Below, one piece after another: positions 2,856-44,470 of a stretch of DNA of 64,000 nt (position 1 is its first letter; every line of letters begins with the position of its first letter). The notes below the pieces were generated by a model. That model was not told the origin of the DNA. It searched no databases and saw only the letters and a program-made list of their open reading frames with translations. Origin of the DNA: a virus; the IMG/VR virus record IMGVR_UViG_3300033402_000312, one strand, 5' to 3'. A program made the position numbers and the translations under genes.

Positions 2856-3353
2856 ATGAGCGGGTTGACATTCGAGAAGTGGTGGGAAGAAAATTACTGG
2901 CGGTTTTGCGGCGAGGTCACGAGCCAGCATGTGAAGATCGCCTGGGATGCTGCGCTTGGCATGCTTCTGGTGGTGGAGGGCGACTACAACGACGCGGACT
3001 ACATTGTCAGCGTTGCGCCTGTCACCGAGGAAAAACTTGAGAAGTTCCTGCCGTTGATCGAAGCCATCAAAAATTTCAAACCCTACACGATAACCTCACG
3101 CGGGTATGCAGGCGAGGGCGAGAAGCCTTTGTCGTGGACTCACAAACACAACTGGCCCTGCGGCGAATACGGCTGCCGCCAAGACTTGGGGGAAAAGCCC
3201 ATCACGGAACTGTACCCCGAAATCGACGCGGGGATTGTCGAGGAGTTCGACCAAGAGTACGTGCCGCACAATGAGGACGGAAACGTCCATACAATCGAGA
3301 AGATTTTCACCGTGAGATTTGATAGACTCATATTTGAGCACGCAGGCAAATGA
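2856..3353 (+). CDS. hypothetical protein
   Basis: 165-aa ORF preceded by CTGTATACT extended -10 element. Confidence 0.5.
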   Translation: MSGLTFEKWWEENYWRFCGEVTSQHVKIAWDAALGMLLVVEGDYNDADYIVSVAPVTEEKLEKFLPLIEAIKNFKPYTITSRGYAGEGEKPLSWTHKHNWPCGEYGCRQDLGEKPITELYPEIDAGIVEEFDQEYVPHNEDGNVHTIEKIFTVRFDRLIFEHAGK

Positions 3354-4003
3354 GTCTCCTTGACCAAGCCATAGAGCTTGCCGTCACCGCCCATGCTGGG
3401 CAAACAGATGAAGATGGCATGCCGCGTGTCATCCACGCTTTGGAAGTGATGTTCGGGGCGAAAAAAGCTATCGAGACTAGCAGAACGTACGAAGGGCATT
3501 CCGCCCAAGAAACCCCGAATTATACCGGCACCGTGGAAGACCTGATGATCGCTGCTGTGCTCCACGATACCGTCGAGGACTCGTTCGTCACGCTACCTCT
3601 CATCGAAGTGCAATTCGGCAAGCATGTCCGCGACATGGTGGACGGTGTCACCCGGCGCGGCTTGGGCAAAGGCGAAACCAAGGAGTTTTACCGCGACTTC
3701 ATTTACCGGGCGAAAACAAACCCCGGCTCTCGCATCATCAAGATCGCTGACCTGATGCACAATTATGGGCGCTCCCATAAGATCAAAAAGGCAAGCTGGC
3801 GGAACAAGCTGATGTTCAAGTACAACGTCGCGCTGTCCGTCTTGAAAGATGCCGACCAGCCGACATGGGAGCAGGCTTCCTCTTCCGTGCAGCTTGACGG
3901 GTCGCATGCCCGCTATTTCATTGCCGACCCAGACGGCAAGAGGATCGAAGTCGCCGAAGAAGAATTCAGACGCTTATATGCAAAGCGGCCGAAGAACCCA
4001 TAG
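3350..4003 (+). CDS. HD-domain (p)ppGpp hydrolase-like protein (RelA/SpoT hydrolase-domain family)
   Basis: motifs HALEV, AAVLHDTVED, FG..V...VDGVTR typical of RelA/SpoT HD hydrolase domain; ATGA overlap with upstream gene. Confidence 0.7.
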   Translation: MSLLDQAIELAVTAHAGQTDEDGMPRVIHALEVMFGAKKAIETSRTYEGHSAQETPNYTGTVEDLMIAAVLHDTVEDSFVTLPLIEVQFGKHVRDMVDGVTRRGLGKGETKEFYRDFIYRAKTNPGSRIIKIADLMHNYGRSHKIKKASWRNKLMFKYNVALSVLKDADQPTWEQASSSVQLDGSHARYFIADPDGKRIEVAEEEFRRLYAKRPKNP

Positions 4004-6248: not shown

Positions 6249-6613
6249 GCGACTGCGTGAGTATCACGCTGTTCCGCGTGATAATGATCGGCGTTGCGAC
6301 CGGGGCGATCAGCCTGTTCATCACCAAGTCCGCCCTGCTCAACCCGTTCCATGCCTGGCTGGAAAAGCAGTCGCCGTTCCTTGAAGAGATGCTTTCCTGC
6401 CCGTGGTGTACTAGCCACTGGGTCGGCGCGTTCTTCCTGCTGGTGTATCAGCCGTGGCTTCTCGACGGCTGGCGTCCGGCGTGGACGTACGCTAGCTGGC
6501 TCAACCTCCTCCTGACCCCCGTGGATTGGCTCGTGACCCTGATGGTGGTAGTCACCGTCGCGGCAATAACGGCACGGGTCATCTATAGCGCCCACAAGCC
6601 GCTTATGGGGTAA
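6245..6613 (+). CDS. DUF1360-like membrane protein
   Basis: hydrophobic helices, SCPWCTSHW motif typical of DUF1360. Confidence 0.5.
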   Translation: MSDCVSITLFRVIMIGVATGAISLFITKSALLNPFHAWLEKQSPFLEEMLSCPWCTSHWVGAFFLLVYQPWLLDGWRPAWTYASWLNLLLTPVDWLVTLMVVVTVAAITARVIYSAHKPLMG

Positions 6614-6620
6614 TAGACTC

Positions 6621-7733
6621 ATGACGCATCCCATCCTTTACAAGAAAACCAGCACCGGGGCGATCCAGTATTGGCTGATCAGCGCCGAAGGCAATCAAAT
6701 CATGACCACCTACGGTCAGGTCGGCACCGATTCGCCCCAAACCACGTTTGACACCATCAAGGAGGGCAAGAACGCCGGGCGGGCCAACGCGACCACCCCC
6801 GAGCAGCAGGCGCAAGCCGAGGCGAAGGCGAAGTGGACAAAGCAGCTTAAGAAAGGCTACGTCAAGACGCAGGCGGAGGCGGAGGCAGGGACGGTTGACG
6901 CGATCATCGAAGGAGGCATCCTGCCGATGCTCGCGCACAAGCATTCCGAGCACGCCAAGAAGATCAAATTCCCGTGCTTTGGGCAGCCGAAGTTCGATGG
7001 CATCCGCTGCACCGCGATCAAGAAGGACGGCGTTGTCTCCCTCTGGTCGCGCACCCGCAAGCCGATCAAGTCCGTGCCGCACATCGCCAGAGCCGTCGAG
7101 ACAATCCCCGGCGACTTCATCCTTGACGGCGAGCTTTACAACCACGACTACCGGCAGGACTTTGACACCATCGTCGAGCTTGTCCGCCCGGACGAGCCGG
7201 TCGAGGGGCACGAGGCAGTGCAGTACCACGTGTATGACACCGCGAATGACCAGCCGTTCAAGGAGCGCAACGACTGGCTGATCGACAAACTCGACAGGTC
7301 ATATCTCTTTGGCATCATCGTCCGCGCCGAGACCCATATCGTGAATTCTGCCGACGAAGTCGAGGCTTTCCATGAGCTTATGCTGACGCACGGCTACGAA
7401 GGCGCGATGCTCCGCAACGCTGACGCCCCGTACGTCAACAGGCGCAGCTACGACCTCCAGAAGGTCAAGAAGTTCGTGGACGCCGAGTTCGAGATCGTGG
7501 GCTTCGAGGAGGGGCGCGGCCGCCTGCAAGGGCACATCGGGAGCTTCGTGTGCAAGACGAAGGACGGCAAGCTGTTCAAGGCGAAGCAGAAGGGCAAGCT
7601 CTCCAAGCTCAAGGAGTACTTTGATGACCACTCACTTTGGCAGGGCAAAAAGCTGACTGTGCAGTACCAAAACCTTACCCCGGATGGCATCCCGCGTTTC
7701 CCAGTCGGCAAGGCGATCCGCGATTACGAATAA
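6621..7733 (+). CDS. lig: ATP-dependent DNA ligase
   Basis: adenylation motif I KFDGIRC (KxDG); size/organisation of phage ATP ligases. Confidence 0.75.
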   Translation: MTHPILYKKTSTGAIQYWLISAEGNQIMTTYGQVGTDSPQTTFDTIKEGKNAGRANATTPEQQAQAEAKAKWTKQLKKGYVKTQAEAEAGTVDAIIEGGILPMLAHKHSEHAKKIKFPCFGQPKFDGIRCTAIKKDGVVSLWSRTRKPIKSVPHIARAVETIPGDFILDGELYNHDYRQDFDTIVELVRPDEPVEGHEAVQYHVYDTANDQPFKERNDWLIDKLDRSYLFGIIVRAETHIVNSADEVEAFHELMLTHGYEGAMLRNADAPYVNRRSYDLQKVKKFVDAEFEIVGFEEGRGRLQGHIGSFVCKTKDGKLFKAKQKGKLSKLKEYFDDHSLWQGKKLTVQYQNLTPDGIPRFPVGKAIRDYE

Positions 7734-7776
7734 ATAAAAACAGAGCCGAAAAGCCAAAATCCGGCATCAAAGGGTT

Positions 7777-8517
7777 ATGGGCGATCCCGCGAAAACCAAG
7801 GTACAGGTGTTTGTTTGGGACGAGCACGAAGAGCCGCAGGAGCTTCACGGCTCCTCCCTTGAAACGGTCTTTGAGGTTGTGCTGGCCGGTTGGCTCAAAG
7901 TCAAAGAATACGGGAAAGTCCGAAGGGTTTACCCGACCGGGGAGCTTGCCATATACTACCGCGCTTTCACCGACGAGCATCGGGGCCGCCAGATCGTCAG
8001 CGGTGTCAGCCTAGCCGAACTGGACGCCGCCTACCAAGAACGGAAAAAGCAGTGCACCCTGAAGGTTTTCACCCCCGCTGAGCTTTACGCCCTAAAGCCT
8101 GTTCGAATAGACTACGATCCCTGGCTCACGGTTAGCGTGCATCTCTCCGAGGATGTCAGCCACTTTGACCTTGACTTCGACGCTGTCGAGAAAACGCAGC
8201 GCGTGGAAATCCGCACTTTAGCTGACCACGACTACGACGGCAGGCGCGTCTGGACTCTCCAGACAGTCTGGTTTGACAACAAGCCCGTGATGGTGGTAAA
8301 CAGTTCTGGAAGGGACGGCGACGAGTACCATGAGCGCTGGATCACGGATGCCCAGCTTTTCGGGGAGCTTGTGACGTTTCTGAGGACATTCACGCCTCAG
8401 CGGGACGTGGACGGGTTCGTGAAGGCCGATGCGAAAATCCCCGGCATGACCGAGTTCTATAACCATACGATTCATGATTACTACGACGTCGAGGCTCAGA
8501 GGCCTAAAAAACCGTAG
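7777..8517 (+). CDS. hypothetical protein
   Basis: 246-aa ORF. Confidence 0.45.
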   Translation: MGDPAKTKVQVFVWDEHEEPQELHGSSLETVFEVVLAGWLKVKEYGKVRRVYPTGELAIYYRAFTDEHRGRQIVSGVSLAELDAAYQERKKQCTLKVFTPAELYALKPVRIDYDPWLTVSVHLSEDVSHFDLDFDAVEKTQRVEIRTLADHDYDGRRVWTLQTVWFDNKPVMVVNSSGRDGDEYHERWITDAQLFGELVTFLRTFTPQRDVDGFVKADAKIPGMTEFYNHTIHDYYDVEAQRPKKP

Positions 8518-8573
8518 AATCTTGCACCGTTTTGCTGTATGATCGAATCTTGCATGATATAGGAGCATACGAC

Positions 8574-9236
8574 ATGTCCATCAAACAACTGATTCACCAA
8601 GCGAAGAGCCTCGTGGTCGAGGACGATGCGCCGGCCCCGCATGCCGCCGCTCCGACGACCTCGTCGCACCCAGCATTCAACTTGTCTCCGGCGTTTTCAA
8701 CCGGGACGGGCGCGGCGGCGGCCCCGGCCCCTGTCGATTCTCCGTTCTCGGTTCCGAGCACGCCCGTTCTCGACGAAAAGGTCTACAAGTCCGTTCTTGC
8801 CAAGACAAACTTCAACACCACTCCGGTTGGCACGACGATCATCAAATACTACGATGCCCTCGAAGGCATGATCGCCGACCAGAGCGCCCGCTTCAAGGCA
8901 GCCATCAAGCAGGCGCAGAAACTCGACAACATCACTCCCGACCAAGTTCTCGGCGTGTTCGATCAGCTTTCAGCGGCGCTGGACAAAGACGCGGCAAGCT
9001 TTCAGAAAGTCGCAGACAGCGTGCAAGCGACCCAAATCACAGCCCGTCAGACCAAGATCGCCAGCCTCCAGCAGCAAGTTGAGGCTTTCAACAACCAGAT
9101 CAATCAGCTTCAGATGGAGTTGGCATCGGAAACAGCTAACCATGCCAACGCGGTGACGCAGTACGGCTTGGCGCAACAGCGCCGGGCGCAAGAGATCGCG
9201 GCACAGAAAGCGCAAGTCGCCACCCTGCTTCGATGA
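8574..9236 (+). CDS. hypothetical coiled-coil protein
   Basis: AGGAG RBS before ATG 8574; Ala/Pro-rich linker then Q-rich coiled coil. Confidence 0.45.
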   Translation: MSIKQLIHQAKSLVVEDDAPAPHAAAPTTSSHPAFNLSPAFSTGTGAAAAPAPVDSPFSVPSTPVLDEKVYKSVLAKTNFNTTPVGTTIIKYYDALEGMIADQSARFKAAIKQAQKLDNITPDQVLGVFDQLSAALDKDAASFQKVADSVQATQITARQTKIASLQQQVEAFNNQINQLQMELASETANHANAVTQYGLAQQRRAQEIAAQKAQVATLLR

Positions 9237-10477: not shown

Positions 10478-12298
10478 ATGGCACACATCAAACCCCAAGC
10501 CAAGATTGCATTGGTGGTGATCCTCGTGGTGGGCGTGGTCTTCGGACTCCGCATCGCTGGCGAGCACGGGTATATTCCAGTTCCCGGCTATCTGCATTCT
10601 CTGGTTCCTCAGAAAGCTAACATTCCCGACGTGCGCGACGCCGAAGTCTCCAACGTCACCCCGGTCGCGCTTCCGACCAGTTCGCCAGCTACTGTGCAAA
10701 GCACTTTGATTCGCGGCGAAATCTGGGAGTGGAACGCCCAGATGGGCTTGCTCTTTGCAAATGGCGGCCCAACCACAACCCAAGGCTCGCTGATGGCGAA
10801 GCGCAACGTCAACTTGATGCTTATCCGTCAGGACGACACCAACAAGATGCAGGAAGACCTGATCGCCTGCGCGAATGAACTCCATGGCGGCGCTACCCAG
10901 TGCTCAAACGGGGCGAACTTCGTTGTGATCATGGGCGACGGCTCGGGCCAGTTCGCGGCTGCGGTCAACCCCCAGCTTGCGAAGCTTGGACCGCAGTACC
11001 TCGTGAAGGTCATTGCCGCGACCGGCTATTCCCGTGGCGAGGACGCCTTCATGGCACCGCCAGAGGTCAAGAGGTCCGCTTCCAACGCCAAGGGCATCCT
11101 CGTGGAGGGCGTGCTCCGCGATGGCGACTGGAACATTGCCATGAAGTGGGCTGCCGACAACAACATCCCGAACAACCCCGACGAGCACACATACGACTCG
11201 GACGCCATCAACTGGGTCAACGCCCCCGACTACAACACTGCCGCATCCGACTACGTCGCTGGCAAGTGCGAAGACCGCAAGGTTGTCAAGGACGGACACC
11301 CAACCGGGGACACCAAGCACGTCTGCGTTAACGCGGTCGTGACGTGGACACCAGGCGACGTCACTGCCGTCACGCAAAAGGGCGGATTGGTGAAGGTCGT
11401 GTCATCCAAGCAGTATCGCTCGCAAATGCCAGCCGTCATCCTCGGCCCGGAGAAGTTTTTCGCCGACAACCGCGACGAGATCACCAACATGGTCGCAGCA
11501 ATGTTCGAAGGTGGCGATCAAGTGAAGGCGTTCGACCAGTCATTGCACGCTGCTGCGACCATCTCAACGAAGGTCTACAACGACGAGGGCGACAGTGTCA
11601 GCCACGGCGGGGAGTTCTGGTACAAATATTTCAAAGGCGTGGACTACCGCGACTCTGAGGGGAACACCGTACTTCTTGGCGGCTCGGCGGTCAACAACCT
11701 CGACGACAACTTGATCCTGTTCGGTCTCAAGCCGGGCACGAACGACAACTTCCGTTCGACCTACACTGTCTTCGCGAACATCGACGTGCAGCAGTATCCC
11801 ACGCTGTTCAAGGAGACCCCGATCCCGGACGTCAAGACAGTCGAAGACAAGTCGTACATCACCGGAGCGCAAGCTATACTCTCCGGCGAAGGCGACGTCG
11901 GCTCCGAGGCGCAGACTGTGGACTACACGTCGCAGGCTTCCGGCGAGACTGTCTCGAACCGTTCTTACAACATCCAGTTCCAAACCGGCAGCAGCGTCCT
12001 GACTCCCGCTGGCGAAGACCAACTCCGCCAGTTGAAGGATGGTTTGGCGATCACCGGGCTGTTCATCAGGGTGGACGGATATACCGACAACACCGGCTCC
12101 GACACGGTCAACATCCCGCTGTCGCAAGCCCGCGCCGAGTCGGTGAGGAACTTCCTCCAGCGCAACTATCCGGGAACGTTCCCGAACAGGCGCTTCCAGA
12201 CAGCGGGGCACGGCTCGCAGAACCCCATCGCCAGCAACGCGACGGCTGAAGGCAAAGCCCAGAACCGCAGGGTCGAGATAACCCTTGTGGGTCAGTGA
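10478..12298 (+). CDS. ABC transporter substrate-binding protein (NitT/TauT-like) fused to C-terminal OmpA-like peptidoglycan-binding domain
   Basis: N-term TM anchor; middle resembles SsuA/TauA-type substrate-binding protein; C-term OmpA motif GYTDNTGSDTVNIPLSQARAESV...NRRVEI; AGGAGGAGAGAAA RBS. Confidence 0.65.
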   Translation: MAHIKPQAKIALVVILVVGVVFGLRIAGEHGYIPVPGYLHSLVPQKANIPDVRDAEVSNVTPVALPTSSPATVQSTLIRGEIWEWNAQMGLLFANGGPTTTQGSLMAKRNVNLMLIRQDDTNKMQEDLIACANELHGGATQCSNGANFVVIMGDGSGQFAAAVNPQLAKLGPQYLVKVIAATGYSRGEDAFMAPPEVKRSASNAKGILVEGVLRDGDWNIAMKWAADNNIPNNPDEHTYDSDAINWVNAPDYNTAASDYVAGKCEDRKVVKDGHPTGDTKHVCVNAVVTWTPGDVTAVTQKGGLVKVVSSKQYRSQMPAVILGPEKFFADNRDEITNMVAAMFEGGDQVKAFDQSLHAAATISTKVYNDEGDSVSHGGEFWYKYFKGVDYRDSEGNTVLLGGSAVNNLDDNLILFGLKPGTNDNFRSTYTVFANIDVQQYPTLFKETPIPDVKTVEDKSYITGAQAILSGEGDVGSEAQTVDYTSQASGETVSNRSYNIQFQTGSSVLTPAGEDQLRQLKDGLAITGLFIRVDGYTDNTGSDTVNIPLSQARAESVRNFLQRNYPGTFPNRRFQTAGHGSQNPIASNATAEGKAQNRRVEITLVGQ

Positions 12299-12317
12299 TT
12301 AACCCGGCTAAGGGGAA

Positions 12318-12349
12318 GGGGTCGGGATGAAAATCCCGACCCTTTTTGT
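12318..12349 (+). terminator. rho-independent terminator after the substrate-binding/OmpA fusion gene
   Basis: gggtcggga-tgaaaa-tcccgaccc then ttttt. Confidence 0.7.
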
Positions 12350-12587
12350 TTGTGGCTGCATCAAACTGGTAGGAGCGTACGGTGACCAAAAGGGAAGCAA
12401 GGCGTTGCGGTTCGCTCTGCACCGGATGCTACAAGCGCGGAAAGCGGGCAGGGCAGCTATGCTTGAAGGTCAGCAAGTTTTTGGTGCAGATCATGCGCTA
12501 CGACAGATTCGCAAGGCGGGTCAGGAGCGGTGAGGGGCGCTGCGGGGTTCACACACCACGTCACCTTAGGACTGAAAGCCGGGCTAT

Positions 12588-12899
12588 ATGAGCCAGACTT
12601 ACGACAAGAAAACAGTGCTCGCGGCTGCGGACAAGACGGTGCAGGCTGTGCTTGCCGAGCGGAAGATACTGCTTGCGAAGTGGGATTCCAAGAACATCGC
12701 CGTTAGGTTTCTCCTCGGTATGATCGGTATAGTGCGCCCCGACTACCACGGCATATCACGGCAAAAGATCGCCGAGCGCGTTTCGTTCAAGGCGGCGTTC
12801 TGTATAGAGGATGCTACCCATCTCACCGACGACGAGATTGACGCCATCAAACATTGGTGGCTTGTCGAGGAGACTCCGAAGGCGTGCTGGCATGAATGA
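12588..12899 (+). CDS. hypothetical protein
   Basis: 103-aa ORF. Confidence 0.4.
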   Translation: MSQTYDKKTVLAAADKTVQAVLAERKILLAKWDSKNIAVRFLLGMIGIVRPDYHGISRQKIAERVSFKAAFCIEDATHLTDDEIDAIKHWWLVEETPKACWHE

Positions 12900-13677
12900 A
12901 ATCCTAGCGGCGTTCACGCCCAATAGGGCGGTGTCCAAGTCCACGATCAAGCTCATAGTCGGCGTGCAGGTCGTCGTCTTCTTTTTGCTGTGGATGTTCT
13001 CGCCGTTCGTGCTCCTGCCAACCGTCAAGGAAGTCTGGACGGCATTCGTGGAGCAGTGGTACCAAGGGCTGCCGGGCGAGCTTCTCATCAGTTTCTATGC
13101 GAACCTTCAAGCTATCGCCATCTCGTGCGTCATCTCGCTCGGGCTGGCTTACTTGACCGTGCTGGAAGGCTTCCGCCCCGTCGTCGTCTTCCTGTCCAAG
13201 CTGCGCTTTCTGTCGATGATGGGCTTGAGCTTCTTCTTCACTGTGGCGACATCGACCGCCCACCAGCTTAAGATTTCCCTCCTTGTGTTCTCGATCTCCG
13301 TGTTCTTTGTGACCGGGATGGCTGACGTCATCGAGTCTATCCCGAAGGAACAGTACGACCTCGCCCGGACGCTTCGCATGGGGCCGTGGCGCACGGTCTG
13401 GGAAGTCGTGGTGCTGGGGCAGATCGACAAGAGCTTCGACGTGCTGCGCCAGAACGCGGCAATCGGCTGGATGATGCTTAGCATGATCGAGGCAATGGTG
13501 CGAAGCGAGGGCGGCATCGGGGCGATGCTGAGCACCGCCAACAAGCACTTCTATCTCTCCGCCGTATTTGCTATTCAGATAGTAATCTTGTTGACAGGTT
13601 TATTCCAAGACTACATGATCGGCGCATCCAAACGCTTATTCTGCCCCTACGCAGCATTGACATCGGAGCGCAAATGA
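12892..13677 (+). CDS. ABC transporter permease (NitT/TauT family-like)
   Basis: multi-TM, follows substrate-binding gene; ATGAATGA overlap with upstream ORF. Confidence 0.65.
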   Translation: MNEILAAFTPNRAVSKSTIKLIVGVQVVVFFLLWMFSPFVLLPTVKEVWTAFVEQWYQGLPGELLISFYANLQAIAISCVISLGLAYLTVLEGFRPVVVFLSKLRFLSMMGLSFFFTVATSTAHQLKISLLVFSISVFFVTGMADVIESIPKEQYDLARTLRMGPWRTVWEVVVLGQIDKSFDVLRQNAAIGWMMLSMIEAMVRSEGGIGAMLSTANKHFYLSAVFAIQIVILLTGLFQDYMIGASKRLFCPYAALTSERK

Positions 13678-14030
13678 TGAACATCAAAGTCGGGGACACG
13701 GTAACGCGCCTGCTTGCCGGAACCATCCCGATGGAGCTTAAGGTCACCGAGGTCACGGATGACCGCATCGTCTGCGGCGGCTGGGAATTCGACAAAGCGA
13801 CCGGAGTCGAGATCGACGAAGAACTCGGCTGGGGGCCGCCGCCGAAGATGACCGGGAGCTTCATCAAGTCTGGTGTCATGACACCGGCAGAGAAGTTGCT
13901 ATACCAAACGTGTGCTACGTGCTCTGCCTTAAGGCTTTACTATGAAGAGACACGGAGATGCACCTGCGCAGAAGGGTTGAACCCCAACTGCCCGGCTCAC
14001 GGAGACACCAGAAAAAATAACTTGCCTTGA
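13674..14030 (+). CDS. hypothetical protein
   Basis: ATGA overlap; 118 aa. Confidence 0.4.
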   Translation: MMNIKVGDTVTRLLAGTIPMELKVTEVTDDRIVCGGWEFDKATGVEIDEELGWGPPPKMTGSFIKSGVMTPAEKLLYQTCATCSALRLYYEETRRCTCAEGLNPNCPAHGDTRKNNLP

Positions 14031-14064
14031 CTGACACTACGACTGACTGGAAGGAAAAGAAATA

Positions 14065-15003
14065 ATGCCCGCTCTTTACCCATACACCTACGGCGACACA
14101 CTTCTCAAAATAGACAACGTTTGCCTTTCCGCTTCCGCTGACGGCCTGCGCCTGCTGGAAAAGGAGGGGCCGGGCAGCCGTTCCATCCTGAAAAACGTCA
14201 CCGCCGAAGTGAAAAAAATCAACCGCGACGATTACGTGAACGGGCAGATTGTCGGGTTCATCGGTCCATCAGGCATCGGAAAGACCCAGCTATTCCGCAT
14301 TATCGCAGGGCTGAGCACCCCGACGTCCGGCGCTGTCTACGTCAACCGCGAGAGCACCCCGGTTCGGGCTGGCGAAGTGGGCGTCGTCGCCCAGAACTAT
14401 CCCCAGTTCGCGCACCGTACGGTGATGGGCAACCTCCAGCTTGCCGCAAGGCGCAGGGAAAAGGACCCCAAGGTCGCGCACGACAAGATCATGGACCTCC
14501 TGAACGAGTTCGGGCTGGCGGACAAGGCGCACCTCTACCCGGCGCAGCTTTCGGGCGGTCAACGCCAGCGCATCGCTATCATCCAGCAAATCCTCGGGGC
14601 GCAGCATTACTTGCTTATGGACGAGCCGTTCTCCGGTCTGGACATCATCGTCGAGGGCAAGGCTACCGACCTGATCATGAAGGTCGCCAACCGCGACGGG
14701 CTGAACACGGTCATCGTGGTCACGCACGACATCTCGGCGGCCGCCTCGATAGCCGACCACATCTGGGCGCTGGGGCGGCAGTTTGACGTGAACGGTACGC
14801 CGACGCCAGGCCTTCAGATTCCCAGCGAGCAGCTTGCGACCAACGGCGGGATATACCAGCCCTTGGATGGCGCGACTATCGTGAAAACGTACGACTTGAT
14901 CGAGCGGGGCTTGTGCTGGACGCAGATGGGCGACCACGCCATGGTGCAGCCGAATATGGTAGAATTCATCCGTGAGGTGAAGAGTGACTTTTACCATTTC
15001 TGA
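14065..15003 (+). CDS. ABC transporter ATP-binding protein (SsuB/TauB-like)
   Basis: Walker A GPSGIGKT, signature LSGGQRQR, Walker B LLMDEPFSGLD, H-loop VTHD. Confidence 0.8.
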   Translation: MPALYPYTYGDTLLKIDNVCLSASADGLRLLEKEGPGSRSILKNVTAEVKKINRDDYVNGQIVGFIGPSGIGKTQLFRIIAGLSTPTSGAVYVNRESTPVRAGEVGVVAQNYPQFAHRTVMGNLQLAARRREKDPKVAHDKIMDLLNEFGLADKAHLYPAQLSGGQRQRIAIIQQILGAQHYLLMDEPFSGLDIIVEGKATDLIMKVANRDGLNTVIVVTHDISAAASIADHIWALGRQFDVNGTPTPGLQIPSEQLATNGGIYQPLDGATIVKTYDLIERGLCWTQMGDHAMVQPNMVEFIREVKSDFYHF

Positions 15004-15794: not shown

Positions 15795-16511
15795 ATGGCA
15801 GAAACGGCGTCCGAAGACAAGGTGAAGATTCTCGCGATCAGCGCCTCCACGGTGGCAGACGGCCACGTGGAGCAGATGCTTTCCATCTTTTGCACGCAAG
15901 CTTTCTCCCTTGGCGCTGACGTCGAAATCGTCCGCCTCGTGGAGATGCTTCCCCCTCCCGTGTCCGGCAGGCTGGAAGGCTGGGAACCAGACCCATTCTG
16001 GGAGAAGAAGATCGGCGAGGCCGATGCCGTGGTCATCGCGACGCCCACCCACTGGTTTGCGCCTCCGGCAATCCTGAAGGCTTGGATTGACAACCTGACG
16101 CCGCTTGTCATGAAGAGCGGCAGCGACCTCGTGGGGAAGTTCGCGGGCATCATGATCTACGCCCCCGAGGGGGGCGGGGCTATGCTGGCTGGCTGGTTCG
16201 CGCTCGTGCTCAACAACATCGGTTTCACTATCCCGGCCGACGGCGTCATCTGGCAGGAGGGCCCGTATAAGAAAGCGCAGAACACATGGGTGTACAAGGC
16301 GATACCCGCGCTGGCGGGCAATATCATCGCGCTGGTCATCGCGCTGCGTAGCGTCCCCGCCGACGCATCGGTTTTCCTGACTGAGCGCGTCGCCCGGTAC
16401 CGGGCGCGGGGCGGCAAGAAGAAGAGCGGGCTGTCCGCCCTGATGGAGTTGACCGAGGAGCTTCCGCTAGTGGTGGAGGGCGAGGAGCCGCAGGCACCGC
16501 CTAAGGGGTGA
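15795..16511 (+). CDS. NAD(P)H-dependent FMN reductase-like flavoprotein (flavodoxin-like fold)
   Basis: KILAISAS...ADAVVIATPTHWFAPPAILKAWIDNL matches FMN_red pattern. Confidence 0.55.
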   Translation: MAETASEDKVKILAISASTVADGHVEQMLSIFCTQAFSLGADVEIVRLVEMLPPPVSGRLEGWEPDPFWEKKIGEADAVVIATPTHWFAPPAILKAWIDNLTPLVMKSGSDLVGKFAGIMIYAPEGGGAMLAGWFALVLNNIGFTIPADGVIWQEGPYKKAQNTWVYKAIPALAGNIIALVIALRSVPADASVFLTERVARYRARGGKKKSGLSALMELTEELPLVVEGEEPQAPPKG

Positions 16512-20013: not shown

Positions 20014-20107
20014 GGAGAGATGCCAGAGAGGCTGATCGGGGCGGTTTGCTAAACCGTTGTGGGAGCTAAAACTTCCACCGGGGGTTCGAATCCCCCTCTC
20101 TCCGCCA
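20014..20107 (+). tRNA. tRNA-Ser(GCU), type II, CCA encoded
   Basis: acceptor ggagaga/tctctcc, T-arm ggggg-ttcgaat-ccccc, anticodon loop ttGCTaa, long variable arm. Confidence 0.75.
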
Positions 20108-20108
20108 C

Positions 20109-20200
20109 GGAAGGGTTGGTACATTGGCAGGTCCGGCTGTCTCGAAAACAGTTACGGGGCGCAAGCTCCGTTGCCCGTTCGACTCGGGTCCCTTCCTCCA
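20109..20200 (+). tRNA. tRNA-Ser(CGA), type II, CCA encoded
   Basis: acceptor ggaaggg/cccttcc, T-arm gcccg-ttcgact-cgggt, loop ctCGAaa. Confidence 0.65.
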
Positions 20201-20345
20201 AGTTTAGATCGCAGCGGTGTTGGATACAGTTACTTCGGATAAACACAACCGGCGCGAGCCGGGCGTGCAAGTCTGGGTTCGAATCCCAGCGACCGGGCGC
20301 AAGCCCGGTGTCAACTGTGCCGCTTGTTCCCTGCGATTCAGTTTT

Positions 20346-20435
20346 GGAGAGTTGGCCGAGTGGACGATGGCGCTCGCTTGGAAAGCGAGTATCCTCGAAA
20401 GGGGGTCGCGAGTTCGAATCCCGCACTCTCCGCCA
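20346..20435 (+). tRNA. tRNA-Ser(GGA), type II, CCA encoded
   Basis: acceptor ggagagt/actctcc, loop ttGGAaa, disc G. Confidence 0.7.
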
Positions 20436-20436
20436 G

Positions 20437-20528
20437 GGCGAGGTTGGTACATGGGCAGGTCCGGCGCTCCCGAAAAGCGTTACGGGGCTGACGCTCCGTT
20501 GCAGGTTCAACTCCTGTCCTCGCCGCCA
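20437..20528 (+). tRNA. type II tRNA, Ser(CGA)-like with C33
   Basis: acceptor ggcgagg/cctcgcc, T-arm gcagg-ttcaact-cctgt, loop ccCGAaa (C at position 33). Confidence 0.5.
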
Positions 20529-20533
20529 AATTT

Positions 20534-20619
20534 GGAAGGTACTGCCGAATGGTTGGCAACTAGCCTTGAAAGCTAGGGCGTCCGAAAGGACGGGCGTTCG
20601 ATTCGTCTATCTTCCGCCA
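20534..20619 (+). tRNA. tRNA-Ser(UGA), type II, CCA encoded
   Basis: acceptor ggaaggt/atcttcc, D-stem tgcc/ggca, anticodon stem ctagc/gctag loop ctTGAaa. Confidence 0.7.
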
Positions 20620-20646
20620 AATTTCAGGTATTAGCCGTAGTAATTC

Positions 20647-20735
20647 GCGGGAGCAGCCCGATTGGCCGGAGGCGGCGGACTTAAAATCCGTTGGGAGCAA
20701 TCCCTTTGTGAGTTCGACTCTCACCTCCCGCACCA
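20647..20735 (+). tRNA. tRNA-Leu(UAA), type II, CCA encoded
   Basis: acceptor gcgggag/ctcccgc, disc A, loop ctTAAaa, T-arm gtgag-ttcgact-ctcac. Confidence 0.7.
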
Positions 20736-20740
20736 AATTC

Positions 20741-20829
20741 GCTGGTGTCCGTTGGCACGGGGAACCGTTTTATAAACGGTTGCCCTAGATCGGGGCTTCC
20801 ATAGGGTTCGATTCCCTACACCAGCACCA
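20741..20829 (+). tRNA. type II tRNA with anticodon UAU (unusual; Ile(UAU)-like or noncanonical)
   Basis: acceptor gctggtg/caccagc, disc A, anticodon stem accgt/acggt loop ttTATaa, 21-nt variable region, T-arm taggg-ttcgatt-cccta. Confidence 0.5.
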
Positions 20830-39814: not shown

Positions 39815-39890
39815 AGGGGATTGGTCTAGCGGCTACGATGCGCGTCTCCAAAACGCTGCGACGGGGGTTCGAGTCCCTCATCCCCTGCCA
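39815..39890 (+). tRNA. tRNA-Trp(CCA), CCA encoded
   Basis: acceptor aggggat/atcccct, loop ctCCAaa, T-arm gggggttcgagtccctc. Confidence 0.7.
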
Positions 39891-39912
39891 AGTTTTTGAA
39901 GGGAAGGAAGTT

Positions 39913-40543
39913 ATGGAACTGAGGTCAGGGGCTTCTCAAGCGCGAGGTACCCGCATCCTGCGGGGGGAGACGGCTGCCCGGAGGCGTCTTCATCTCGTCT
40001 AGCCTTGCGCAGAGGGCGACGGAAGCCGGGTACGAGGAGTTCGTCCTTCCGTCGCTTGAGCTTGCCGCCATGTACGCGGAGAAGGCGGGGGATGAGGTTC
40101 TGGGGCAGATGTACACGTTCCCGGACAAGAAGGGCAGGCTGCTGTGCCTGCGACCGGAGGGGACGGCGACGTGCCAGGTGCTCGCCGACACGGCGCTGAA
40201 GTCGGAGCGGGACGTGAGGCTCTGGTACCTGGCGACCTGCTGGCGCTACGAGCGGCCGCAAGCCGGGCGCTACCGGGAGTTCTTGCAGTTCGGCGTGGAG
40301 GTCCTGAACCCGCGCCGGGGCGTGCGGGACGAGCTTGTGGCGCTGGCCGAAGGCATGGTCGGAATGTTCACCGACCGCTATGAGGTGAGCAGGGCTGTGA
40401 AGCGCGGGCTGGCGTACTACGTCGAGGACGGCTTCGAGATAAGCTGCCCGCAGCTTGGCGCTCAGAAGCAGGTCTGCGGCGGCGGGTCGTACAAGCAGGG
40501 ATGCGGCTTCGCGCTCGGCGTGGATCGGCTGATGCTGGTTTGA
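39913..40543 (+). pseudogene. hisS-like (histidyl-tRNA synthetase class II core) remnant, frameshifted and internally shortened
   Basis: N-term fragment MELRS..RGTRILRGETAA stops at 40002; second frame carries motif 1 LRPEGTA, motif 2 CWRYERPQAGRYREFLQFGVE, motif 3 CGGGSYKQGCGFALGVDRL; insertion and anticodon-binding domains absent. Confidence 0.45.
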
Positions 40544-40570
40544 GTTTCATGCCGTAGTGCATGACACTAC

Positions 40571-40644
40571 GGTGGGCGTAGTTCAGTTGGGAGAACGCCC
40601 GGCTGTGAACCGGGAGGTCGCGGGTTCGAACCCCGCCGCTCACC
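40571..40644 (+). tRNA. tRNA-His(GUG) with genomically encoded G-1, no encoded CCA
   Basis: G-1 pairs with discriminator C73; acceptor gtgggcg/cgctcac; loop ctGTGaa; T-arm gcggg-ttcgaac-cccgc. Confidence 0.75.
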
Positions 40645-40689
40645 CTTTCGTGACTTCCTGAGTATTAAGTAGAGTGCTCAGGAAGGTTC

Positions 40690-41517
40690 ATGATGCTTTA
40701 CACCGTGTACAAGACGGTGAATTTGACGAACGGCAAGTACTACTTCGGCGTCCATAAAACGGACGACCCGGATGACGACTACCTCGGTTCTGGGGTATAC
40801 ATCAAGCGAGCCGTTGCAAAGTACGGGGAACAGAACTTCCGCAAGGAAGTGTTGTTCATTTATCTTGATGCGGAGTCGGCGTTTAAGAAAGAAGACGAGT
40901 TAATCCAGTGTTATCGAGGCAGGGACCCGTTGTGCATGAATCTAAAGAATGGAGGGAGAGGTGGCTATGACTGGATCAATAAAAACGGGTTAAATGGTGC
41001 GAAAGTTGCGCATCTCCCAAATGTAGAGCAACAGCGGCGACGGACATTCGGTAAAAGACTTAAGACCGACGAAAATTTTCGACGTCAAGTTGCCGAACGA
41101 GCAAAGCACGCGGCGCAATTTGTAAAAAATGAGAGCCGCTTGGAATCATTAAAGCAGGCGACAATCGCAGCAGCGAACGCAAATACGGGCAGAAAACGCT
41201 CCTCGGAATTCAAGCATAAGATTTCTGCCGCGCAGCGAGGGGGTAGGTGGGTACACCAAGGAAGAAATAAACGTCGAGTTGTCCAAGAAGATTTGCCAAG
41301 ATTTTTGAAAGAGGGCTGGCTGTTTGGACAAAAAGACAAGCCGTCGCTTAAGACCCGAAAATTAAGTAAAGCTCAAACAGCTTTCGCGGGGACACGTTGG
41401 TGCTGGGGGCATAAAGATTTTTTACCTCTTAACGCTTTTGATGGCGCAAATCGGTTGTGTAGGCTTTGCAGGAAAAAGCGGCGAGTTTTACGCCGCCAAG
41501 AGTTGGGACATTGGTAA
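40690..41517 (+). CDS. GIY-YIG homing endonuclease
   Basis: N-term YTVYKTVNLTNGKYYFGVHKT...YLGSG GIY-YIG motif; lower GC than flanks; sits between tRNA genes. Confidence 0.7.
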   Translation: MMLYTVYKTVNLTNGKYYFGVHKTDDPDDDYLGSGVYIKRAVAKYGEQNFRKEVLFIYLDAESAFKKEDELIQCYRGRDPLCMNLKNGGRGGYDWINKNGLNGAKVAHLPNVEQQRRRTFGKRLKTDENFRRQVAERAKHAAQFVKNESRLESLKQATIAAANANTGRKRSSEFKHKISAAQRGGRWVHQGRNKRRVVQEDLPRFLKEGWLFGQKDKPSLKTRKLSKAQTAFAGTRWCWGHKDFLPLNAFDGANRLCRLCRKKRRVLRRQELGHW

Positions 41518-41527
41518 TTTGATATAG

Positions 41528-41604
41528 GCGCGTGTAGCTCAGTTGGACAGAGCGCTACTCTGCGAAGGTAGAGGTCGCTGGTTCGAATCCAGTCACGCGC
41601 ACCA
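41528..41604 (+). tRNA. tRNA-Arg(GCG), CCA encoded
   Basis: acceptor gcgcgtg/cacgcgc, D-arm gctcagttggacagagc, loop ctGCGaa. Confidence 0.65.
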
Positions 41605-41611
41605 AGAGATT

Positions 41612-41689
41612 GCGCCTGTAGCTCAGTTGGACTAGAGCGTTCGCCTCCGAAGCGAAAGGCCGCGAGTTCGAGTCTCGCCAGGCGCACCA
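41612..41689 (+). tRNA. tRNA-Arg(CCG), CCA encoded
   Basis: acceptor gcgcctg/caggcgc, anticodon stem ttcgc/gcgaa loop ctCCGaa. Confidence 0.7.
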
Positions 41690-41859
41690 AGTTCGAGAGC
41701 AGTCCCGGCGCTGGCCGTGCGCAGCACGGATCAACGCCGCCGATGATTGGGGTCTGGTGCCCGAACCATCTGTGATACTCAACCGGACTAGGCGCGTTGC
41801 CGCTGGCCCAAAGTGGACGTCCACGGAAGGAGTCACGTGAGAGAGGGCTGCCTGAGTTT

Positions 41860-41937
41860 GCCGGGTTAGCTATTGGACATGGCAGCACGTCTTCGAAACG
41901 TGCAATTTAGCGGGTCCGAATCCCGCACCCGGTTCCA
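41860..41937 (+). tRNA. tRNA-Arg(UCG), CCA encoded (6-bp anticodon stem)
   Basis: acceptor gccgggt/acccggt, anticodon stem gcacgt/acgtgc loop ctTCGaa, T-arm gcgggtccgaatcccgc. Confidence 0.55.
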
Positions 41938-41943
41938 AGATTT

Positions 41944-42020
41944 GCCCCCGTAGCTCAGCGGAACAGAGCGGCACGCTACGAACGTGAAGGTCGGCGGTTC
42001 AAATCCGTCCGGGGGCACCA
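41944..42020 (+). tRNA. tRNA-Arg(ACG), CCA encoded
   Basis: acceptor gcccccg/cgggggc, loop ctACGaa. Confidence 0.7.
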
Positions 42021-42179
42021 AGGTTAGTACGAACATCAAGCCTGATTAAAGACGGTTGCTTTGAACGAGTAAAAAAGGAAGTAGTAAAGTGTGATGTGCG
42101 ATGTGCTAACTGTCACAGACGCCGCACTGCAAAGCAACAAAAACATTTTTGGCTAGAATTTTTAGCAACGAAAGTTTGA

Positions 42180-42255
42180 TGGGGTGTGGTCCAATCGGTA
42201 GGACGCTCGGCTGTTAACCGAGACGGTGTGGGTTCGAATCCCACTGCCCCAGCCA
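42180..42255 (+). tRNA. tRNA-Asn(GUU), CCA encoded
   Basis: acceptor tggggtg/tgcccca (U1), D-stem gtcc/ggac, anticodon stem ctcgg/ccgag loop ctGTTaa. Confidence 0.65.
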
Positions 42256-42362
42256 GCTTATGAAGTGGATTGCCCAAGCCCTGCTGAAGCGGATCGGCGC
42301 GTATCTGAATAACAAGCGCGGATTGACTTGGGCCGAGGCGAAGAGGTGGTATATCGTCATCA

Positions 42363-42381
42363 CCCCCCTTGCGGGGGTTTT
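42363..42381 (+). terminator. putative intrinsic terminator
   Basis: cccccc-ttgc-ggggg followed by tttt. Confidence 0.45.
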
Positions 42382-42422
42382 GAGGAAGGGAGCAAAGGCG
42401 TAAATTTGCAGAAGAGTTCTGA

Positions 42423-42497
42423 TCCTCGGTAGCTCAATGGCGGAGCAGGCGGCTGTTAACCGCAAGGTTGCAGGTTCAAGTCCTGCCCGAGGAGCCA
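42423..42497 (+). tRNA. tRNA-Asn(GUU), CCA encoded
   Basis: acceptor tcctcgg/ccgagga (E. coli-like U1), loop ctGTTaa. Confidence 0.7.
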
Positions 42498-42502
42498 AGT
42501 TT

Positions 42503-42577
42503 GGGTCTGTAATTCAGCGGCTAGAAGCCCTCGCTCTTAACGAGGTAACGAGAGTTCGAGTCTCTCCAGACCCACCA
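42503..42577 (+). tRNA. tRNA-Lys(CUU), CCA encoded
   Basis: acceptor gggtctg/cagaccc, anticodon stem cctcg/cgagg loop ctCTTaa. Confidence 0.7.
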
Positions 42578-42594
42578 AGTTTTTGTGATACCAT

Positions 42595-42671
42595 GGGCCG
42601 CTAGCTCAATTGGTTAGAGCAACTGCCTCTTAAGCAGAAGGTTCCCGGTTCGAGTCCGGGGCGGCTCACCA
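42595..42671 (+). tRNA. tRNA-Lys(CUU), CCA encoded
   Basis: acceptor gggccgc/gcggctc, D-arm gctcaattggttagagc, loop ctCTTaa. Confidence 0.7.
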
Positions 42672-42686
42672 AGATCGGAGAGGAAG

Positions 42687-42857
42687 ATGCTGAAGCCCAA
42701 CGGTGATTTTGATTTAGACGGAAAGCCGGTCATGCCCGATGTGGTTGTCGCCGGACTCATCCCCAACGAGGAGGGGCAAAACGATGTCGAGGTCGAACCT
42801 GCCGGGGTCGAACCCGACGATGACGACCTCTTCGTGGACTACGGCGGCGAGGGATGA
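42687..42857 (+). CDS. hypothetical small acidic protein (56 aa)
   Basis: GGAGAGGAAG RBS then ATG 42687; not in ORF track (below 60 aa). Confidence 0.35.
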   Translation: MLKPNGDFDLDGKPVMPDVVVAGLIPNEEGQNDVEVEPAGVEPDDDDLFVDYGGEG

Positions 42858-42901
42858 CAAGTTTTTGGGTATTAGGATTCTTAGGATAGGAGGTCGAAGA
42901 C

Positions 42902-43447
42902 GTGCCTGACGTACTGATTCTCGACATGAACTACCGCCCTGTCGGTTTCGCATCGTGGCAGGACGCGGTCAAGAACATCTGGAAGGACCGGGCTGTCGTC
43001 ATCAAGGAAGACGAGGACGGCAAGATGCTCCATTCCCCGTCCTTCGAGATGGGCATGCCGAGGGTGATCCGCGTCCGCAACGCGTGGGTGAAGCGGCGCA
43101 AGACCTCCGTCCCGTTCTCGCGGCGCAACCTTTACGTCCGCGACAGCGGCGAGTGCCAGTACTGCGGCAGGCACCTCAAGCTGGACGAGTACACGCTCGA
43201 CCACGTGGTGCCGCGCTCGCAGGGCGGTATCTCGTCCTGGGCGAACATGGTCCTGTCCTGCATGCGCTGCAACAAGCGCAAGGCGGGTCAGACGCCGGAG
43301 CAGGCAGGGATGCCTCTCTTGCAGAGGCCAATCGTCCCGAAGGTGGACGATCCGAAATATAATTTCAAATTGCACATTCGGAAGCTCCGCCCCGAGTGGA
43401 AGGAATGGGAGAACTTCCTGTACTGGAACATCGAGTTGGATAAATAG
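42902..43447 (+). CDS. HNH endonuclease
   Basis: CQYCGRHL...LDHVVPRSQGG...SCMRCNKRK. Confidence 0.75.
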   Translation: MPDVLILDMNYRPVGFASWQDAVKNIWKDRAVVIKEDEDGKMLHSPSFEMGMPRVIRVRNAWVKRRKTSVPFSRRNLYVRDSGECQYCGRHLKLDEYTLDHVVPRSQGGISSWANMVLSCMRCNKRKAGQTPEQAGMPLLQRPIVPKVDDPKYNFKLHIRKLRPEWKEWENFLYWNIELDK

Positions 43448-43494
43448 GTAGACAAGCCTCGGGGAGGACGATAACCTCCCCGAGCAAAGATTGC

Positions 43495-43572
43495 GGCCCC
43501 GTAGCTCAGCGGAACAAGAGTAGCGGTTTCCTAAACCGAAGGTCGTGCGTTCGAATCGCACCGGGGCTACCA
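43495..43572 (+). tRNA. tRNA-Arg(CCU), CCA encoded
   Basis: acceptor ggccccg/cggggct, loop ttCCTaa, T-arm gtgcg-ttcgaat-cgcac. Confidence 0.65.
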
Positions 43573-43577
43573 AAATT

Positions 43578-43775
43578 ATGATGTCAGCCGACATTTTCGT
43601 CTGGAAGTGCATCGTCTGCGGGCATAGGGTCATGACGCAGATGGACCTCCATGTCAACGACCGGCCGATCTGCGTGGAGTGCAATGCGGAGATGGAGCCA
43701 GTGAGGAAAGACCCCGAACTCGGGGAGCGCATCATGAGGATATGGGAGCGGCTGGTTCCCGGCGCACAGATTTGA
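43578..43775 (+). CDS. hypothetical zinc-ribbon protein
   Basis: CIVCGH...CVECN. Confidence 0.35.
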   Translation: MMSADIFVWKCIVCGHRVMTQMDLHVNDRPICVECNAEMEPVRKDPELGERIMRIWERLVPGAQI

Positions 43776-43779
43776 CTTT

Positions 43780-43854
43780 TGGGAGATCGTACAATCGGTA
43801 GTACACAGGTCTCTGGAACCTGTTATGGCGGTCCGAGTCCACCTCTCCCAGCCA
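43780..43854 (+). tRNA. tRNA-Gln(CUG), CCA encoded
   Basis: acceptor tgggaga/tctccca (U1-A72, disc G as in E. coli Gln), anticodon stem caggt/acctg loop ctCTGga. Confidence 0.65.
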
Positions 43855-44465: not shown

Positions 44466-44470
44466 AATTT

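Follow-up and report, generated by a model that had tools for sequence, protein, structure and literature searches.

We analysed a stretch of 64,000 nucleotides (hereafter, the window) from the IMG/VR virus record IMGVR_UViG_3300033402_000312 and describe a module of five genes, designated A to E, that is predicted to combine ATP-binding cassette (ABC) transport with anchoring to peptidoglycan and with a membrane protein of ESCRT-III-like type. Genes A and B encode a putative coiled-coil protein and a membrane-anchored protein resembling PspA and Vipp1, C encodes a putative binding protein fused to an OmpA-like domain, and D and E encode the permease and the ATPase of a probable importer-type ABC transporter (Table 1). 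A first-pass annotation of the same DNA had described C, D and E as a three-gene transporter operon. Its three open reading frames (ORFs) were recovered on the plus strand with identical boundaries and are co-directional, but the unit to which they belong has five genes, and the transporter is only three-fifths of it. The module reads A–B–C–D–E, with B, C, D and E contiguous and co-directional, and A and B are linked to the transporter genes in essentially every complete bacterial and viral locus.

The window belongs to a huge phage and is not a misassembly, because the arrangement is identical on independent contigs and its synteny is conserved. Protein C is identical on at least nine contigs, and four of these, from separate ENA, JGI and Logan samples, carry the same phage genes on both sides; samples holding such contigs include peat and soil (for example JGI 3300034091 and ENA ERZ27256985). 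Related phages at 63–75% identity retain the cassette in the same synteny, and close relatives of the window phage were found on contigs of 438–463 kilobases (kb). The window itself encodes rIIA and rIIB, an ATP-dependent DNA ligase, a Ku-like protein and 22 transfer RNA (tRNA) genes, and nearly all of its long ORFs point in the same direction. The host is probably an acidobacterium of the order Terriglobales. Homologous operons were looked for in this presumed host and are present there: a cluster on a 1.34-Mb acidobacterial contig, adjoining cysS, gatCA and dciA, has the same gene order, and all five of its proteins (226, 353, 597, 261 and 273 amino acids (aa)) are homologous to those of the window, at identities of 34% for A, 28% for B, 67–71% for C, 63% for D and 57% for E.

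Two small ORFs, i103 and i118, interrupt the transporter genes, and neither matched a family in Pfam, PHROGs or PADLOC. The first is specific to the window phage, does not occur in bacterial cassettes and had no homologue in the other module loci; in other phage lineages the position between C and D holds different small ORFs or gaps. The second is specific to a phage lineage, with a homologue (63% identity over 72 aa) in the corresponding place on L091, a viral contig of 463 kb. The 289-nucleotide gap between C and i103 (12299-12587) contains a 68-aa ORF (12327-12533) that was annotated by one gene caller, and no RNA family matched this gap. A search of the window and of five related loci revealed neither a riboswitch nor a regulatory RNA that might point to the ligand.

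Table 1. Coordinates of the module genes and of other features discussed (positions in the window unless a different contig is named)
Feature	Position	Strand	Details
Gene A, coiled-coil protein, 220 aa	8574-9236	+	Homologous to first gene of bacterial cassette
Gene B, putative membrane-anchored PspA/Vipp1-like protein, 373 aa	9289-10410	+	Transmembrane segments; AlphaFold2 and Foldseek
Gene C, putative binding protein + OmpA, 606 aa	10478-12298	+	Profile matches; AlphaFold2 model; Foldseek
i103, small ORF, 103 aa	12588-12899	+	Between C and D; overlaps D start by 8 nucleotides
Gene D, probable type I ABC importer permease (TauC/NtrB/SsuC-like), 261 aa	12892-13677	+	
i118, small ORF, 118 aa	13674-14030	+	Between D and E; start overlaps D stop codon
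Gene E, ABC ATPase, 312 aa	14065-15003	+	ABC_tran at E = 8.6e-24
dATP/dGTP diphosphohydrolase N-terminal domain protein	1299-1814 or 3350-4003 (pair)		PF18909, E = 4.5e-7
Classical AAA ATPase, 530 aa	4057-5649		Closest to Cdc48/VCP/p97 D2 domain, E = 3e-77; 2.9 kb upstream of module
ATP-dependent DNA ligase	6621-7733		
NADPH-dependent FMN reductase/flavodoxin-like protein	15795-16511		PF03358, E = 1e-16; about 0.8 kb downstream of module
tRNA cluster 1	20014-20829		5 tRNA-Ser, Leu, Ile
tRNA cluster 2	39815-44629		Trp, His, 6 Arg, 2 Asn, 4 Lys, 1 Gln
rIIA-like and rIIB-like genes	56461-60181		phrog_612 at 8e-99; phrog_609 at 3e-69
Ku-like DNA-end-binding protein	60319-61428		After rIIA/rIIB-like genes
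ECF sigma/zf-HC2 pair of acidobacterial locus L143	7286-8178 (1.9-Mb contig, Acidobacteria)		OsmC gene just before pair

Predicted architecture of the five proteins

Protein C consists of an N-terminal hydrophobic helix (residues 10–28), a linker of around 45 aa, a putative binding domain (approximately residues 75–470) and an OmpA-like domain (residues 497–604). The helix, first read as a membrane anchor, is compatible with either a cleaved signal peptide or a permanent anchor. At the sequence level the C-terminal assignment, also made in the first-pass annotation, is certain: PF00691, the OmpA family of peptidoglycan-binding domains, matched residues 501–597 at E = 1.3e-18 (67.6 bits against a cut-off of 27.2). 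The motif GYTDNTGS..NIPLSQARAESV..NRRVEITL is nearly identical to those of Escherichia coli YiaD and Mycobacterium tuberculosis ArfA, the conserved TD..G / LS..RA..V signature is present as GYTDNTGSDTVNIPLSQARAESV, and residues D537, N538, R552 and A553 do not vary in those alignments of the family where the domain is included. The Asp and Arg of the motif presumably contact the peptide stem, as in the Acinetobacter OmpA–peptide structures (3TD3-5). Matches in the Protein Data Bank (PDB) were to YiaD, ArfA, OmpA and TagL, and fold matches to 5m38, 3td5 and 7rjj.

The central part of C, around 400 residues, matched no Pfam, NCBIfam or PHROG family, and a profile of 38 family members found no solved binding protein in the PDB. 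An AlphaFold2 model (mean predicted local distance difference test (pLDDT) of 74.5) nevertheless gave Foldseek matches at a probability of 1.0 (E values of 5e-7 to 2e-4, template-modelling (TM) score of around 0.5 on the target) to CmpA (2i49), NrtA (2g29), TauA (6ssy), SsuA (3uif), the ThiY-like proteins 4nmy and 3ix1, and DszB. As the matches include CmpA, NrtA, TauA and SsuA, the earlier label 'SsuA/TauA-like' is supported at the level of the fold, although not by Pfam, NCBIfam or PDB profiles, and the middle domain is predicted, from a model of moderate confidence, to adopt the fold of the NrtA/CmpA/TauA/SsuA binding proteins. Residues W85 and N86, R117, D119, M152 and G153, S185, E188 and D189, D217, N233, D235, the T289-W-T-P-G-D294 segment, W381, and G401 and G402 are invariant in the family. 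These invariant positions are rich in Trp, Asp, Glu and Asn, and we speculate that they are better suited to a cationic or polyhydroxylated ligand, such as an osmoprotectant, than to nitrate or sulfonate. The binding-domain family is small: 1.84 billion representatives yielded 481 clusters at 50% identity. In the best 150 of these clusters, nearly all full-length members have 590–630 aa, and the domain appears to be nearly always fused to OmpA.

The start of gene D at 12892 is used by the gene callers and by all homologues, rather than that of a longer ORF from 12811. Protein D contains several transmembrane segments, carries at residue 153 a coupling motif of EAA-like type (EQYDLARTLRMGPWRT) and scored 25.9 bits against BPD_transp_1, slightly below the gathering score of 26.4 bits. 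Its matches in NCBIfam were to NtrB and SaoP and were weak, and those of its Flavobacterium orthologue were to TauC (4e-18), SaoP and NtrB; NCBIfam scores for the transporter proteins of the module were all far below the equivalog cut-offs. Placement of D among the NitT/TauT-type permeases is likely at the family level. In E, the Walker A motif (residue 67), Q-loop, LSGGQ signature (residue 162), Walker B motif (residue 183) and H-loop (residue 220) are all present, so the protein is predicted to be catalytically competent; its NCBIfam matches were to importer-type ATPases (PhnT2, CysA, PotA, NtrCD and SsuB/TauB). These results support the view of D and E as a NitT/TauT-type pair. The terminal extensions once attributed to E (around 60 aa at the N terminus and 70 aa at the C terminus) turned out to be something else: a tail of approximately 45 aa after the ABC core (YDLIERGLCW...FIREVK) is common to all members of the family, and what is specific to the phage protein are internal insertions of around 13 aa (residues 21–33) and 20 aa (residues 258–277).

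Gene A, always immediately upstream of B in the loci compared, starts at the ATG at 8574 ('MSIKQLI'), in agreement with gene calls and the N termini of homologues; the mechanically derived ORF begins at a TTG at 8532. Its product has a short conserved N-terminal motif, a linker rich in Pro and Ala, and a C-terminal helical or coiled-coil domain, has no transmembrane segment, and is 34% identical to the Terriglobales protein and 37% identical to that of the 454-kb phage contig L144. Searches of Pfam, NCBIfam and PDB profiles returned generic coiled-coil similarity only and no known family, and we take protein A to be a cytoplasmic coiled-coil protein. That A is a paralogue of PspA was considered and found unsupported (hhalign probability of 1.3% against the B family).

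Protein B begins with a transmembrane hairpin (residues 28–46 and 56–74) that is followed by long helices. Its AlphaFold2 model has a pLDDT of 69 overall and of more than 90 for residues 110–230, and contains helices at residues 102–161, 165–248, 252–291 and 296–316, which in the model correspond to an ESCRT-III-type architecture of a long alpha1–alpha2/3 hairpin followed by shorter alpha4 and alpha5 helices. The top Foldseek matches were the Vipp1 structures 7o3w (E = 2.9e-4), 8qbw, 7o3x and 6zvr and the PspA structure 4whe (TM score of 0.76 on the target), and seven of the ten best PDB matches were Vipp1 or PspA. The family profile PF04012 (PspA_IM30) was weakly matched by 10 of 34 members of the B family (best E = 2.4e-5), one homologue has a precomputed match to PF04012, and JGI names some homologues 'phage shock protein A'. 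The model therefore points to an inner-membrane protein with a cytoplasmic part of PspA/Vipp1 (ESCRT-III) fold, that is, a membrane-anchored protein belonging to, or resembling, the ESCRT-III/PspA superfamily.

The C terminus of B carries a conserved short motif: the window has DYSDLFKG, Terriglobales have DYGDMFK, and Bacteroidota and low-GC (guanine–cytosine content) phages have GGFGD[IM]F. In the latter two groups, the start of protein A resembles it, reading [FW]K[DS]LF with acidic residues behind it. By analogy with the C-terminal MIM motifs of ESCRT-III proteins, the terminal motifs of B and A (loci L001 and L061-L142) may be shared docking peptides.

Distribution and history of the module

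Searched at the DNA level against 50,697 phage records, the region gave only two short and trivial matches. At the protein level, the only relative among these deposited records was LR756500.1, a huge phage with a genome of 462 kb and a GC content of 25%, in which the genes are arranged as A–B–C–[small ORF]–D–E. At least 53 IMG/VR contigs, many of them 100–500 kb in length and ranging in GC content from 25% to 56%, encode a homologue of C. The transporter is thus not peculiar to the window but shared with these contigs and with LR756500.1. The A–B–C–D–E order holds in around 50 of the IMG/VR contigs; complete loci there nearly all retain A to E, and small ORFs or gaps are common between C, D and E.

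Scanning one genome per species yielded 80 loci, and around 75 bacterial loci have the A–B–C–D–E order, which every complete locus keeps, in Terriglobales/Candidatus Sulfotelmatobacter as well as in Flavobacterium and other Bacteroidota. Several contigs from bacterial metagenome-assembled genomes (L026, L038, L042, L046 and L076) are assigned to unlikely taxa: Dormiibacterota (407 kb), Binatus, Anaeromyxobacteraceae, Saccharimonadales and Limnohabitans. Some of them may be mis-binned acidobacterial, Bacteroidota or phage contigs; the one labelled Saccharimonadales (L046) branches among viral lineages in the trees described below.

Neighbour-joining trees were built for C (123 sequences) and for concatenated D and E (54 sequences); both are distance-based and midpoint-rooted. 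In both, the window copy groups with viral copies (L144, L091, L092 and L090), the Terriglobales sequences form a shallow clade set within deep viral lineages, and another large viral clade, of low GC content, is the sister group of Bacteroidota. Given the distance-based and midpoint-rooted trees, the nesting of Terriglobales within viral lineages is provisional and needs confirmation. Because the trees group the window with viral copies and place the acidobacterial copies among them, we read the cassette as an old phage module that has been vertically retained, rather than as a recently acquired moron. The GC content of the window cassette equals that of the Terriglobales cassette, and the C, D and E proteins of the two are 57–67% identical. 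Recent acquisition from the host was considered and rejected, as the window copy lies inside an old viral clade in both trees despite the equal GC content.

A variant of the module in one acidobacterial genome (L143) differs from the main Terriglobales variant. Its B protein is 49% identical to the phage B protein (compared with 28% for the main variant), and its C protein is less similar to the phage protein (50% compared with 67%); as B is closer to this variant than C is, the history of the module appears to be mosaic. The same copy lies directly downstream of genes for an extracytoplasmic function (ECF) sigma factor and a zf-HC2 anti-sigma factor. This pair was considered as a general regulator of the module and rejected, as it is upstream of just one acidobacterial locus.

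In 26 Bacteroidota chromosomal loci, mostly from Flavobacterium, a gene for an AAA+ protein (AAA and AAA_lid_6 domains) directly follows E. This operon-type AAA+ gene was absent within the flanks of all phage and Terriglobales loci.

Proposed role and alternatives

Bacterial genomes are already known to hold operons of this general type. Using comparative genomics, Ravi et al. 2024 (mSystems, PMC11237479) reported bacterial operons of PspA/Snf7, ABC transporter and PBPb+OmpA genes, inferred that the OmpA domain binds peptidoglycan and proposed a link between membrane remodelling and solute transport. In itself, then, a wall-tethered binding protein is no novelty. The words bacteriophage, virus and phage genome are absent from the main text of that paper (PMC11237479), and our literature searches returned no description of such a module or transporter on a phage, in agreement with the first-pass annotation. 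The reported operons share with the module a transmembrane-anchored ESCRT-III-like protein, a helical partner, a signal-bearing fusion of binding protein and OmpA, a permease and an ATPase; the likeness to their example, OGG56892.1 from Candidatus Handelsmanbacteria (PMC11237479), is one of components. There, the order is PspA, PBPb+OmpA, permease, ATPase, TM+Snf7 and AAA+, in contrast to A–B–C–D–E in phages and Terriglobales. Their helical partner is a second, soluble PspA homologue, whereas its counterpart here, A, is a coiled-coil protein with the hhalign result given above. The example also has a two-domain AAA+ ATPase that the phage and Terriglobales versions lack, although the AAA+ 'may occur' in these operons and is not strictly defining (PMC11237479). 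We regard the module as a phage-borne, AAA-less variant of the bacterial module of PspA/ESCRT-III-like protein, ABC transporter and OmpA-tethered binding protein.

Other systems resemble parts of it. The NitT/TauT importers (NrtABCD/CmpABCD, TauABC, SsuABC and ThiXYZ) have a binding-protein fold like that predicted for C, a permease like D and an ATPase like E; compared with their binding proteins, the domain of C has no similarity at the sequence level, is around 100 aa larger, is fused to OmpA and is always accompanied by an ESCRT-III-like protein. The Psp/Vipp1 systems (PspA, Vipp1/IM30 and LiaH) share the predicted ESCRT-III-type helical hairpin of B, but where they have the amphipathic helix alpha-0, B has a transmembrane hairpin; B is also linked to a transporter, and the module has no PspB, PspC or PspF partners. 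Proteins annotated as 'phosphate ABC transporter substrate-binding/OmpA family protein' in bacteria, which likewise join a periplasmic binding domain to an OmpA-like domain at the C terminus, provide a further lead only: their binding domain is PstS-like and recognised by Pfam, differing from the family of C, and we know of no link between them and ESCRT-III-like proteins. On phages, cyanophage pstS is a precedent for an encoded binding protein or uptake gene. The closest report that we found concerns the huge gut 'Jug' phages, in which a pspA-like gene adjoins terD (PMC12880540). Like the module, these are host-type envelope or uptake genes on phages, which express them, but they are single genes, whereas the module comprises five, including a permease and an ATPase, and is kept across distant phage lineages.

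We propose that the module serves membrane maintenance or the response to envelope stress, has an importer built into it and would keep the host envelope functional, rather than being a simple nutrient-scavenging set; we give this a probability of roughly 55%. The phage would install the module in the host inner membrane during a presumably long infection. C would be exported, held near the inner membrane and bound to peptidoglycan through its OmpA domain, fixing the complex to the cell wall; it would dock on a D2E2 transporter and deliver its ligand, and the solute would be imported. At the same site, B, together with A, would polymerise on the cytoplasmic face and stabilise or repair the membrane, such that the cell stays energised. 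The E tail, the B motif DYSDLFKG and the N-terminal motif of A are candidate contacts through which transport and membrane maintenance may be coupled. The benefit to the phage would be an intact, energised envelope over a long infection. We count in favour of a link to envelope stress both the dedicated AAA+ gene after E in Flavobacterium and the independent proposal of Ravi et al. 2024; the position of the ECF sigma/anti-sigma pair fits such a role in a single case.

Several observations weigh against this proposal. The phage versions lack the AAA+ partner that normally would remodel an ESCRT-III-like polymer, and the association with an ECF sigma factor is limited to one locus. Promoter and terminator scans gave results at the chance level, and the status of the module as an operon is suggested by co-direction and overlapping start and stop codons only. 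In the model of C, the most conserved loops (residues 185–190, 290–315 and 392–403) are the least confident parts. The model of B is only moderately confident, the B protein of the window reached no Pfam threshold for PspA, and long helical hairpins draw generic coiled-coil matches.

The strongest of the alternatives, which we nonetheless consider improbable, is that C, D and E form a plain auxiliary metabolic gene set, importing a nutrient (such as nitrate, bicarbonate, sulfonate, taurine or a thiamine precursor) that feeds replication of a very large genome, with A and B as unrelated neighbours. The fold of C and the families of D and E are those of NitT/TauT importers, E matches phrog_293 ('ABC transporter', in the category 'moron, auxiliary metabolic gene and host takeover'), and phage-encoded binding proteins such as cyanophage PstS provide a precedent. 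However, the linkage of A and B and their order hold across essentially all complete loci of Acidobacteriota, Bacteroidota and diverse phages, which would be improbable for unrelated neighbours, above all in phages, whose cassettes take up small ORFs freely and still retain all five genes. No riboswitch or metabolic gene nearby points to a nutrient, and the invariant residues of C, mostly acidic and aromatic, are a poor fit to nitrate, bicarbonate or sulfonate. The importer reading of the first-pass annotation stands as far as the transporter domains are concerned, but a plain nutrient importer leaves the obligatory link to an ESCRT-III-like protein unexplained.

More doubtful is the possibility that the ABC unit does not import but acts as a mechanotransmitter or sensor, in which C would sense a periplasmic or peptidoglycan-derived signal or a deformation of the envelope, and ATP hydrolysis by E would drive or regulate how the B polymer assembles and disassembles. 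E would then replace a Vps4-like AAA+, in analogy to FtsEX-type systems. This is attractive because the phage versions have no AAA+ gene; phage and Terriglobales cassettes are without it in their flanks, and Flavobacterium cassettes have it. The family-specific C-terminal tail of E and the conserved terminal motifs of B and A would offer possible docking sites, and C may be held at both of its ends, unlike the usual binding protein of shuttle type. On the other side, D looks like a canonical permease of type I importers, EAA-like coupling motif included, whereas the known mechanotransmitting systems FtsEX, MacB and LolCDE use a different permease fold, and membrane-tethered binding proteins function normally in many importers.

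A bolder version, to which we assign similarly little weight, holds that the module is a machine of phage origin, or one long maintained by phages, in which a wall-anchored ABC transporter is coupled mechanically or by regulation to an ESCRT-III-like polymer, that huge phages use it to reshape or continuously repair the inner membrane of the host over long infections, and that the Terriglobales copies are domesticated phage genes. If true, this would be the first ESCRT-III-type membrane-remodelling system serving as a phage weapon or tool, and the first case of an ABC ATPase standing in for Vps4.

We regard a role in superinfection exclusion or anti-defence as remote; in this case, the envelope would be altered to block the entry of competing phage DNA or to counter abortive-infection systems of the host that act by depolarising the membrane. 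The same phage has rIIA and rIIB, which are membrane-associated and in T4 have been connected with exclusion phenotypes, proteins of the PspA type counter the leakage of membranes, and OmpA-like domains occur in the defence protein ZorB. However, PADLOC returned domain-level matches only (OmpA to ZorB, and generic ABC and AAA) with no system membership, on which basis membership of a known anti-phage defence system was rejected, and in Terriglobales and Flavobacterium the module lies on the chromosome, in synteny beside housekeeping genes, a setting that speaks for a housekeeping role in the envelope.

Finally, it is scarcely credible that a bacterial cassette was fused to phage sequence by chimeric assembly or mis-binning: the identity and equal GC content shared with the Terriglobales chromosomal genes and the possible mis-binning of phage contigs under Saccharimonadales and Dormiibacterota labels could be cited for it, but the arrangement with phage flanks recurs identically on the independent ENA, JGI and Logan contigs, phage-specific small ORFs are interleaved with start and stop overlaps, related phages keep the cassette in place, and phage copies are phylogenetically separate from bacterial ones.

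Huge phages are known mainly from metagenomes and carry large accessory gene sets. The module is found in dozens of huge phages that infect at least two bacterial phyla, and its conservation suggests that an intact or energised host envelope is under strong selection in these phages. It also provides a handle on the bacterial PspA/Snf7–ABC–OmpA operons, known so far as predictions, as an orthologous operon is present in cultured, genetically manipulable Flavobacterium species, where it sits downstream of atpA-atpG. Bacterial copies nested among viral ones raise the possibility of a flow of cellular envelope genes from phage to host.

Other genes of the window

The AAA ATPase upstream of the module was considered as the missing Vps4-like partner and rejected, as it is Cdc48-like and unrelated to the Flavobacterium AAA+ protein beyond the P-loop; an ATPase of this type is near the cassette only in close relatives of the window phage. 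The FMN reductase-like gene downstream of the module had no homologue near the module in other loci.

The order HD protein, AAA, DUF1360, ligase and module is common to the window and its 454-kb relative L144. In the syntenic slot of the window ligase, L144 encodes an NAD-dependent ligase with a BRCT domain (6509-8578), and comparison of the two genes points to a non-orthologous replacement inside one phage lineage. The phage may encode its own end-joining repair, consisting of the Ku-like protein and the ligase (60319-61428 and 6621-7733). The PF18909 protein lies close to an HD-domain protein (PF13328), the two occupying 1299-1814 and 3350-4003; the pair is reminiscent of MazZ/DatZ, nucleotide-pool enzymes from phages in which 2-aminoadenine takes the place of adenine.

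Rfam confirmed 16 of the 22 tRNA genes of the window; tRNA sets of this kind are typical of huge phages that reprogramme translation. The longest contig with the exact proteins of the window is 894,233 bp in length, around twice the size of the contigs of related phages, and may be a two-copy concatemer, produced during assembly, of a genome of around 447 kb rather than a genome of 894 kb.

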